Shown here: piece by piece, positions 14,370 to 15,617 of the stretch
How the letters are laid out: each line of letters opens with the position of its first letter
How positions within the stretch are numbered: position 1 is the first letter of the stretch
DNA from: an uncultured Clostridia bacterium
Lineage (GTDB): Bacteria > Bacillota > Clostridia > TANB77 > CAG-508
Direction: 5' to 3'
NCBI GenBank assembly: GCA_948560265.1
Contig: CAOXTD010000002.1
Location: 93,580 to 157,579 of the forward strand
DNA: 64,000 nt
Program-made: the position numbers and the translations under genes
Notes under the pieces: model-generated
What the model saw: the letters and a program-made list of their open reading frames with translations, nothing else
What the model was told of the DNA's origin: nothing
Database searches by the model: none

Positions 14370-15617
14370 ATGGGAAAAATTGATGATTTAATAAAAAATA
14401 AATGTCCTAATGGTGTAAAATTTTTAGATTTGGAAAAATGCTGTAACATATTAGATAATAAAAGGAAGCCTGTTACAAAGTCTGCAAGAAAAGCAGGAGA
14501 ATATCCATATTACGGGGCTAATGGAATTCAAGATTATGTAGCTGACTACATATTTGATGGAAAATATGTATTAGTTGGAGAAGATGGTTCTGTTATAAAT
14601 GAAAATGGAAATCCGATAGTAACATGGGCTGAAGGAAAAATATGGGTAAATAATCATGCACATATTATTGAAGAAATAGAAGGAGTTTCTTTAAGATATT
14701 TATATCATTATATTCAAACAATTAATGTAACAAGTTTAATACATGGAAATATACCAAAATTAAATCAGGGTGATTTTAGAAAGCTTCAAATTGCTGTACC
14801 TCCGTTGGAGGTACAAGATGAAATTGTCCATGTTTTGGACGATTTCATGTTGCTTTCAGCAGAGCTTTCAGCAGAGCTTTCAGCAGAGCTGAAAGCTAGA
14901 CAAAAACAATATGAATATTATAGAGATAAACTATTAAATTTTGAAGACGATGAAACCCTTGGCGCTGTACACACACACACACACACACACACACACGGAT
15001 ATTACTTAAATGATATATGTTGGGTAAAACTAGGAGATGTATGTATTATTTGTGCTGGTGGTACTCCATCTAAAACAAAAGATGAATATTGGAATAATGG
15101 AACAATAAAATGGTTAGGTTCTTCTGTTTGCAAAAATAAAAAAATAGTTGATGAAATTACAGGATATATAACTGAATTAGGATTAAAAAATTCTTCTGCA
15201 AAGCTAATGCAAGAAAAAACAACATTAATTGCAATGGTTGGGGCAACAATAGGTAAAGTAGCATTTTTGAATTTTGAAGCAACTACGAATCAAAATGTAG
15301 CTTGTTTATATCCTAAAAATGAAGAAATATTGAATCCAGATTATTTATATTATGCTTGTAGTAATTTATATTCAAAATTTATTGAATTTGCAAATGGTAA
15401 ATTTGCAATAGCAAGTTTAAGTTTTATTAAAAATTTAGAAATTGCTTTGCCAAACATAAAAGAACAAGAGAAAATAGTAAGCATTTTAGATAGATTTGAT
15501 AAATTGTGTAATGGTATTTCAGAAGGACTACCTGCTGAAATAGAAGCAAGAAAAAAGCAATATGAATATTATAGAGATAAATTATTAACTTTTAAAGAGT
15601 TGAAAGTAGAAAATTAA
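14370..15617 (+). CDS. hsdS: type I RM specificity subunit HsdS (two target-recognition domains; central SAEL repeat)
   Basis: Two-fold architecture in which each half ends in ...QYEYYRDKLL(N/T)F. Central repeats AELSAELSAEL. Start overlaps the hsdM stop. Confidence 0.85.
   Translation: MGKIDDLIKNKCPNGVKFLDLEKCCNILDNKRKPVTKSARKAGEYPYYGANGIQDYVADYIFDGKYVLVGEDGSVINENGNPIVTWAEGKIWVNNHAHIIEEIEGVSLRYLYHYIQTINVTSLIHGNIPKLNQGDFRKLQIAVPPLEVQDEIVHVLDDFMLLSAELSAELSAELKARQKQYEYYRDKLLNFEDDETLGAVHTHTHTHTHGYYLNDICWVKLGDVCIICAGGTPSKTKDEYWNNGTIKWLGSSVCKNKKIVDEITGYITELGLKNSSAKLMQEKTTLIAMVGATIGKVAFLNFEATTNQNVACLYPKNEEILNPDYLYYACSNLYSKFIEFANGKFAIASLSFIKNLEIALPNIKEQEKIVSILDRFDKLCNGISEGLPAEIEARKKQYEYYRDKLLTFKELKVEN
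14856..14891 (+). repeat. 12-bp tandem repeat x3 (tcagcagagctt) encoding (SAEL)3 in the HsdS central spacer region
   Basis: Three consecutive 12-mers; the third ends in ctg. In-frame. Confidence 0.85.
14969..14996 (+). repeat. (AC)14 dinucleotide repeat inside the hsdS reading frame (encodes HTHTHTHTH)
   Basis: gtACACACACACACACACACACACACACgg read directly from the sequence. Confidence 0.9.

Follow-up and report, generated by a model that had tools for sequence, protein, structure and literature searches.

Two length-variable repeats in the hsdS gene of a type IC restriction-modification operon on a Clostridia mobile element: a probable switch between two-domain and half-length specificity subunits

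The stretch of 64,000 nucleotides (nt) analyzed here, called the window below, comes from contig CAOXTD010000002.1 of an uncultured Clostridia bacterium and contains a type I restriction-modification operon whose specificity gene, hsdS, carries two tandem repeats between the segments encoding its two target-recognition domains (TRD1 and TRD2). The three genes are arranged in the order hsdM-hsdS-hsdR on the plus strand, with the hsdM stop codon 1 nt ahead of the hsdS start (Table 1). Two stretches of HsdS are matched by Pfam Methylase_S, and EcoR124II HsdS is the solved structure that it matches best (E = 4.5e-46). HsdM scores 629 bits against the M protein of EcoR124II versus 50 bits against that of EcoKI, and HsdR scores 896 bits against EcoR124 HsdR (PDB 2w00). 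A four-residue X-AEL repeat is present in the central conserved region of HsdS, where three copies of SAEL align, with a gap of four residues, to the TAEL repeat of EcoR124. Judged by these homologies, the operon is a complete type IC (EcoR124-like) system in which all three subunits are close EcoR124 homologues. The type IC family was originally defined by subunit complementation or antibody cross-reaction with its members.

A preliminary description of this DNA, made from the letters alone, had placed in hsdS an (AC)14 tract read in frame as HTHTHTHTH and a 12-bp repeat encoding (SAEL)3, and had likened the latter to the TAEL repeat of EcoR124. Tandem Repeats Finder and translation bear out both positions and the reading frame, and the alignment of SAEL with TAEL in a set of close EcoR124 homologues supports the analogy. 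The AC tract was detected with period 2, 14.0 copies, and 100% matches, and the 12-bp repeat (14852–14890) with period 12, 3.2 copies, and 100% matches; the last of its three units ends in G instead of T. The AC tract lies inside an open reading frame (ORF), its unit is not a multiple of 3, and it exceeds the five dinucleotide units that Atack et al. (2020) took as a minimum. In dinucleotide-preserving shuffles of the window, the 12-mer (AC)6 was expected 0.01 times, compared with nine overlapping occurrences observed, all of them in the AC tract, and a doubled 12-bp unit was expected 0.00 times, so that neither repeat is a product of chance. The window is AT-rich (25–35% G+C), and in its 64 kb the AC tract is the one notable simple repeat, with (AAAAT)3 as the only other.

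To locate the repeats in the protein, we used an AlphaFold2 model of HsdS built on 37 homologues (mean predicted local distance difference test score, pLDDT, of 86). All three SAEL copies are contained within the long central helix that follows TRD1. Residues 193–210, which include the His-Thr tract and lie between the central helix and TRD2, have pLDDT values below 50 and are modelled as disordered. The AC tract is thereby positioned between the two TRDs and past the coiled-coil region, as in the hsdS genes surveyed by Atack et al. (2020). Because the His-Thr loop is outside the helix and modelled as disordered, in-frame changes of two residues in the loop probably leave the spacing of the TRDs unaltered. 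The codons point in the same direction as the position: in 20 ORFs of the window, CAC accounts for 13% and CAT for 87% of the His codons, while CAC is used for each of the five His codons of the tract and CAT for each of the five in the rest of hsdS, and the codon string of the tract would arise with a probability of about 4e-6 under the normal codon usage of the window. The use of a rare codon throughout, together with the location in a disordered loop, argues that selection maintains the nucleotide repeat and not the His-Thr peptide.

The consequences of slippage were examined by simulating AC tracts of 11–17 units in hsdS. With n = 2 mod 3 (11, 14, and 17 units), the product is a full-length HsdS of 413–417 amino acids (aa) with two TRDs. 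With n = 0 mod 3, the product ends ...HT-DIT* at a TAA at 15007–15009, and with n = 1 mod 3, it ends ...HT-RILLK* at a TGA at 15011–15013, the shifted-frame stops being located 11–17 nt past the tract. The truncated products retain TRD1 and the entire central helix; these half-HsdS proteins are 211–215 aa long in the simulation and 205–217 aa in real contigs, and both tails, DIT* and RILLK*, are found in real contigs (L085–L096). In every off-frame allele that extends to the end of the gene, the downstream TRD2 frame is intact, with 203 or 206 codons, making reversibility plausible. When n = 1 mod 3, a 220-aa ORF begins at an ATG (14950–14952) and consists of MKPLALY(TH)n, TRD2, and the distal helix (to 15617); gene callers annotated it in three contigs (L089, L096, and L099). 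No convincing ribosome-binding site was seen for this ORF, and the idea that it could yield a separate second half-subunit, in this frame only, has a low probability. Independent expression of TRD2 with n = 0 mod 3 was considered and rejected: only a 136-aa ORF (ATG 15207) was called, which is missing ~70 residues from the start of TRD2 and probably does not function.

Near-identical copies of the operon from other samples differ from the window at both repeats. We compared 13 contigs that are 98.2–99.9% identical to the window over 2.6–13 kb or that encode an identical HsdM or HsdR. The lineage is known from metagenome contigs, one of which is in a record named mouse gut metagenome. The AC counts of the 13 contigs are 9 (L092), 12 (L085–L088), 13 (L096 and L102), 15 (L094 and L100), 16 (L089 and L099), 19 (L095), and 21 (L090), next to 14 in the window. 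SAEL is present in three copies in the window, L089, and L095 and in two copies in the eight other near-identical contigs that could be read there, so the copy number of the 12-bp unit is polymorphic among otherwise identical genes, as between EcoR124I and EcoR124II. Exact look-ups of the simulated products revealed that the in-frame alleles with two SAEL copies and AC14 or AC17 also exist in this lineage. All three reading frames are therefore represented, comprising both the in-frame and the out-of-frame alleles that Atack et al. (2020) looked for.

These alleles were reached along more than one path. Four contigs, each from a different sample, were found by exact look-up of a truncated relative (P0246); they are 98.2–99.6% identical to window positions 12626–17884, and one 12-bp SAEL unit and two AC units are the only insertions or deletions that separate them from the window. 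Exact look-ups of the window HsdM and HsdR proteins returned further contigs, 99.5–99.9% identical over up to 13 kb; the identical HsdM protein occurs in 35 blocks of the assembly collection, from which 23 contigs were read. Among the contigs with the window TRD2, a table of single-nucleotide polymorphisms (SNPs) contained zero substitutions in hsdS outside the repeats and a few, grouped in patches, in hsdM and hsdR. SAEL state and the SNP at 16896 occur in all four possible combinations, suggesting that the SAEL copy number has changed more than once or that recombination has occurred. Among the contigs found independently of hsdS, through identical HsdM or HsdR, 0 of 9 are in frame (P = 0.026 for a neutral expectation of 1/3); when the window is included, 1 of 10 is in frame (P = 0.10). 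An off-frame bias is thus not statistically secure and is not claimed.

In one contig of the same element (L091:11556–12584, with 6 mismatches over 12 kb), hsdS matches the window over 14370–14941 and then diverges into a wholly different TRD2 without an AC tract, the homology breaking inside the central helix at about window position 14902. Another contig from the same sample (ERZ27255247), L099, begins in the central helix and carries AC16 with the standard TRD2. The swapped domain of L091 shows that the window lineage also varies in a third way, by replacement of the TRD2 cassette. Many assemblies are broken at the AC tract (L101–L105) or in the SAEL repeat (L099 and L100), starting at about window position 14969 or 14860. 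The breaks are compatible with populations of mixed repeat length within a sample, but we do not take them as proof, since assemblies made with a short k break on any repeat longer than k.

The same module is found beyond the window lineage. A sister lineage has the same TRD1 (97% identical) and a different TRD2, with ~88% nucleotide identity in hsdM and 83–85% in hsdR. It comes from metagenome-assembled genomes (MAGs) of uncultured Clostridia, among them a species-representative one from a Hadza gut metagenome (L001), and its AC counts of 4, 6, 8, 10, 11, 12, 13, 14, 15, 16, and 17, inferred or counted directly, cover all three frames, with roughly equal numbers of in-frame and off-frame contigs. 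An off-frame (AC)4 allele is common there (L083, and P0241 with 20 contigs, the longest of 558 kb); its sequence suggests a tract that has contracted and left the gene effectively locked in the truncated state. Two other relatives (P0247 and P0266) carry a single SAEL copy. In distant homologues with other TRD1s, the conserved helix is followed by the same arrangement (...CTHTHTHT...GY), and all frames are represented there as well. The nearest relatives that carry a genome title are uncultured Clostridia or Clostridium MAGs.

Half genes also occur naturally. A Clostridium MAG (L002) contains an intact operon of hsdM, a half-hsdS, and hsdR, in which the 194-aa HsdS has a TRD1 92% identical to that of the window and ends just past the conserved helix; the BLAST coordinates indicate that its TRD2 segment was lost by recombination between both conserved regions. 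Further natural half genes are P0156, P0198, P0202, and P0219. Long simple repeats in or beside hsdS were seen at about 20 of 80 species-level loci with a related HsdS (L004–L008, L011, L026–L034, L043–L047, L054, and L080), namely (GACA/ACAG)7-19, (AGCA)9, (GCAGACA)6, G9-11, (AATC)11, and (AG)8, and the (GACA/ACAG)n tracts encode the TDRQ repeats found in homologues. Other homologues of ~600 aa with three TRDs have SRAEQ, NGTER, or ERER repeats past the second conserved helix, which, at the level of the protein, would fit penta- and dinucleotide repeats. These genes resemble the extended hsdS genes reported by Atack et al. for F. nucleatum and M. haemolytica, and they seem to be widespread in gut Firmicutes.

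We consider it probable that hsdS in this operon is a contingency gene with two length-variable repeats, one of which switches the enzyme by slipped-strand mispairing between two specificities, that of TRD1+TRD2 and a palindromic one due to TRD1 only, and the other of which, SAEL, sets the length of the spacer. Mispairing in (AC)n would shift the frame directly past the central coiled-coil helix. Translation would read through into TRD2 when n = 2 mod 3, and the resulting two-TRD HsdS would direct the M2S and R2M2S complexes to an asymmetric site composed of the TRD1 half-site, Nx, and the TRD2 half-site. When n is 0 or 1 mod 3, it would stop after TRD1 and the central helix, and by analogy with NgoAV and engineered half-HsdS, the half-HsdS of 205–217 aa may dimerize and guide HsdM and HsdR, unchanged, to a palindrome of the form TRD1-Ny-TRD1'. 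Off-frame TRD2 would persist as a silent, intact cassette that the next slippage can re-attach. Gain or loss of a 12-bp unit through unequal alignment of the units would lengthen or shorten the spacer helix by four residues and probably change the target spacer, which differs by 1 bp between EcoR124I and EcoR124II. The two repeats together could provide about four specificities from one operon.

The preliminary description had also predicted that a change of one AC unit truncates HsdS past TRD1, that both tracts are hypermutable, and that the outcome is on/off and specificity phase variation, a phasevarion. The simulation agrees with the first prediction and places the truncation directly after the central helix. 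"On/off" is probably the wrong description, given that in the precedents studied by experiment (PMC9577141, PMC6158711), half-HsdS made by truncation remains active and acquires a new, palindromic specificity, and that a half-hsdS operon exists naturally in L002. As for hypermutability, both tracts do vary among near-identical contigs; the term is less secure for SAEL, which shows two states only in the window lineage and changes at a clearly lower rate than the AC tract. This difference between the tracts is one of several points that weigh against a two-repeat switch. All of the variation separates assembled consensus sequences that come from different samples, and from it we infer reversibility within one clone and the rates of change. 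The four AC12 contigs were found via the truncated protein itself and hence are not an unbiased sample, and unusable counts from short-k assemblies broken at the tract were left out. Finally, an engineered half-HsdS restricted poorly in vivo (PMC6158711), and the truncated state could therefore be proficient in methylation and weak in restriction.

The operon is located on what is, by its gene content, an integrative mobilizable element, with two integrases and a relaxase upstream of hsdM and a defence island (19769–31293) directly downstream of hsdR. A block of about 2815–24366 of the window recurs at 99.5% identity or more in several metagenome samples. On a contig with an identical HsdR (L103:4296–6791), AbiEi/AbiEii and a different AAA+/S8 pair replace the downstream arrangement of the window, so the cargo adjoining the operon is variable. 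A 52-aa ORF (18752–18910) without a Pfam match overlaps the end of hsdR and was called by gene callers in all related contigs that extend that far. A search of a plasmid database with window positions 9000–19000 gave only weak partial matches (Fusobacterium vincentii, 75% identity over part of the query, and Cetobacterium), and an Rfam scan of the whole window matched no RNA family, rRNA and tRNA included.

Table 1. Coordinates of the hsd operon, the parts of hsdS, and the neighboring genes, counted from the first letter of the window.
Feature	Position	Strand	Basis or remark
Tyrosine integrase	4908–6425	+	
Tyrosine integrase	6809–8011	-	
DUF6076 protein	8059–9198	-	
Phage replisome-organiser N domain protein	9642–10139		
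DnaC/IstB-like ATPase	10117–10998		
MobA/VirD2 relaxase	11269–12651		
hsdM, N6-adenine methyltransferase subunit, 517 aa	12815–14368	+	Pfam HsdM_N and N6_Mtase
hsdS, specificity subunit, 415 aa in the window allele (SAEL x3, AC14, in frame)	14370–15617	+	ORF list, translation
TRD1, residues ~1–145	14370–14804	+	Secondary structure of the model, ahead of helix 146–189
Central conserved region, long helix of residues 146–189 (coiled-coil spacer)	14805–14936	+	Model; alignment to EcoR124
12-bp repeat x3 (TCAGCAGAGCTT, TCAGCAGAGCTT, TCAGCAGAGCTG), SAEL reading phase	14856–14891	+	Encodes SAEL x3, residues 163–174
(AC)14 simple sequence repeat	14969–14996	+	In frame, HTHTHTHTH = residues H201–H209
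TRD2 and distal conserved helix (363–405), residues 210–415	14997–15617	+	Model
hsdR, restriction/translocase subunit, 1043 aa	15628–18759	+	Pfam HSDR_N, SWI2_SNF2, T1R_D3-like, EcoR124_C
IetA, AAA+ ATPase	19769–20806		
IetS, S8 subtilase	20799–23027		
Fic+HTH protein	23937–25007		Best match PADLOC candidate-defence family PDC-S72; also SoFic
bSEFIR/TIR protein	25053–26477		
SF1 helicase, DUF2726 domain	27617–30316		Mokosh (MkoA/MkoC) and Hhe model matches

Given this setting, diversification of specificity for defence is favored over a regulatory phasevarion, and the most likely role of the switch would be to diversify the defence specificity of a mobile defence island. An elaboration that we find possible, if doubtful, is a switch with four or more states, in which full or half HsdS is combined with two or three SAEL copies and with TRD2 swaps of the kind seen in L091. 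Half-HsdS would then be the usual state and TRD2 a stored cassette, re-attached occasionally by AC slippage, the three frames might correspond to three states through the ATG at 14950, and the switch would serve as bet-hedging of restriction specificity against gut phages and rival mobile elements and not for gene regulation. The same switch could alternatively serve mainly in epigenetic regulation of host genes, as a true phasevarion, meaning a set of genes whose expression is under the control of methylation. Phase variation of M.NgoAV alters gene expression and phenotype in the gonococcus (PMC9577141), and the text of Atack et al. proposes this role for simple-repeat hsdS genes generally. 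We regard it as unlikely for the present operon, which has kept an intact hsdR and travels on an integrative mobilizable element beside other defence genes; moreover, type I methylation need not change expression, as an example from E. coli shows (PMC8287963).

It is still less likely that the AC tract is simply fragile and that off-frame hsdS is inactive, with both methylation and restriction off, so that the alleles reflect decay or at most on/off switching. The lack of in-frame alleles among the nine independently found contigs, the common and seemingly locked (AC)4 allele of the sister lineage, and the poor in vivo restriction by engineered half-HsdS would all be accounted for in this way. 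Decay, however, would not be expected to leave TRD2 intact in frame and free of SNPs in every off-frame allele, with hsdM and hsdR intact as well, nor to keep a perfect tract at the same position across lineages that differ in TRD1 and TRD2. Natural half-hsdS operons exist, and the truncated HsdS of NgoAV, which is naturally phase-variable, is active. Loss of methylation next to an intact hsdR would be harmless, yet it would provide no reason to keep TRD2.

A third possibility is that the His-Thr repeat is itself the selected feature, as a flexible or metal-binding peptide linker whose in-frame length tunes the spacing of the TRDs, frameshifts being rare accidents. In-frame alleles encoding (HT)2-5H do exist, and an effect of this kind is raised in the text of Atack et al. 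for repeats adjoining TAEL (PMC7383803). We nevertheless hold this to be very improbable, because the tract uses CAC and ACA codons exclusively in a window that strongly prefers CAT, because the segment is modelled as disordered past the end of the spacer helix and should not set the spacing, and because in-frame alleles are no more common than off-frame ones. That the differences in repeat number are artefacts of sequencing or assembly (polymerase stutter or collapsed repeats) is hardly credible: dinucleotide repeats are error-prone, several Logan contigs start inside the tract (L101 and L103–L105), and Atack et al. caution in their text against repeat collapse in short-read assemblies, but tracts of 18–42 nt fit within single Illumina reads, the counts differ by up to 12 units between exact unique flanks on both sides, stutter does not explain a 12-bp unit, the alleles are consistent across independent assemblers and studies (AC12 in four samples), and the pattern recurs in the sister lineage and in the species-representative MAG.

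The locus is a clear natural example of hsdS variation in which near-identical copies of the gene are polymorphic only at two repeat tracts, one toggling the second recognition domain and the other expected to alter spacer length. With it, repeat-driven hsdS switching reaches beyond pathogens and Mycoplasma, the subjects of most descriptions, into gut commensals and onto a mobile defence island. For methylome profiling of gut communities and the binning of contigs by motif, such loci imply that a single strain can display differing type I motifs, and in the engineering of these bacteria, the restriction barrier may vary from clone to clone. A literature search on phase variation, dinucleotide repeats, and hsdS turned up no description of an AC tract in this gene, the supplementary lists of the survey by Atack et al. 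being outside its coverage, and no paper describing this element was found; the gut-microbiome preprint on epigenetic phase variation (PMC11741434) makes no mention of simple sequence repeats or slipped-strand events.

At the level of sequence, the locus belongs on every count to both the repeat-switched hsdS class and the type IC family, and it can be compared with the known members of each. One close parallel is NgoAV of N. gonorrhoeae FA1090, in which a poly-G tract in hsdS1 yields a truncated 208-aa HsdS that dimerizes and recognizes GCAN8TGC, or a fused 410-aa form that recognizes GCAN7GTCA (PMC9577141). As in NgoAV, a simple repeat ends the first half of hsdS, and the frameshift products are of similar dimensions (205–217 versus 407–417 aa here). 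The present repeat is a dinucleotide and not a homopolymer, a second variable repeat, SAEL, is found in the same gene, and the host is a low-GC gut bacterium in which the operon belongs to a mobile defence island, in contrast to a core-genome locus of a pathogen. The parallel for the second repeat is the pair EcoR124I (GAAN6RTCG) and EcoR124II (GAAN7RTCG), which differ by one TAEL unit (two versus three copies; summarized in the text of PMC7383803). The four-residue X-AEL repeat occupies the same place in the central helix here, in one, two, or three copies; SAEL replaces TAEL, and the window HsdS has ~18 additional residues, the repeat loop, after the helix.

In the REBASE survey of Atack et al. 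(2020, FASEB J; PMC7383803), simple repeats were reported in 7.8% of hsdS genes, always between the TRDs and just past the TAEL coiled coil, and switching between full-length and truncated proteins was predicted, the examples in the text being GCAA[7-29] in H. parasuis, AG[n] in Mycoplasma, and G[12] in Salmonella. The window hsdS resembles these genes in having an inter-TRD repeat after a TAEL-type coiled coil with a count that varies between strains. It differs from the examples given in the text of the survey, as distinct from its supplementary lists, in having an AC tract in gut Clostridia-like bacteria; compared with the survey as presented there, the variation occurs among metagenome copies at least 98% identical, with two repeats varying together. 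The effect on spacing suggested in that text for TAEL-adjacent repeats probably does not apply to the His-Thr loop as modelled. The text also describes extended hsdS genes with three TRDs, in Mannheimia haemolytica (G[n]) and Fusobacterium nucleatum (AAGAC[n]). In these, as here, the reading of another TRD depends on a simple repeat that follows a conserved helix, and many homologues of the window HsdS are of this type; the window gene has two TRDs, so its alternative product is a half-HsdS and not an HsdS of normal length.

Half-HsdS proteins have been obtained by engineering as well. Truncations of EcoDXXI and EcoR124I are reportedly further cases of this kind. In S. aureus CC398-1, HsdS cut directly before TRD2 gave an active methyltransferase recognizing the palindrome ACCN5GGT, as confirmed by SMRT (single-molecule real-time) sequencing, with weak restriction in vivo (PMC6158711). 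Unlike those laboratory constructs, the truncation described here is made, and would be undone, by a natural repeat. The concept of repeat-switched hsdS is already published (Atack et al. 2020; NgoAV), and what is unusual in the present operon is the natural series of alleles and the occurrence of two variable repeats in one gene.

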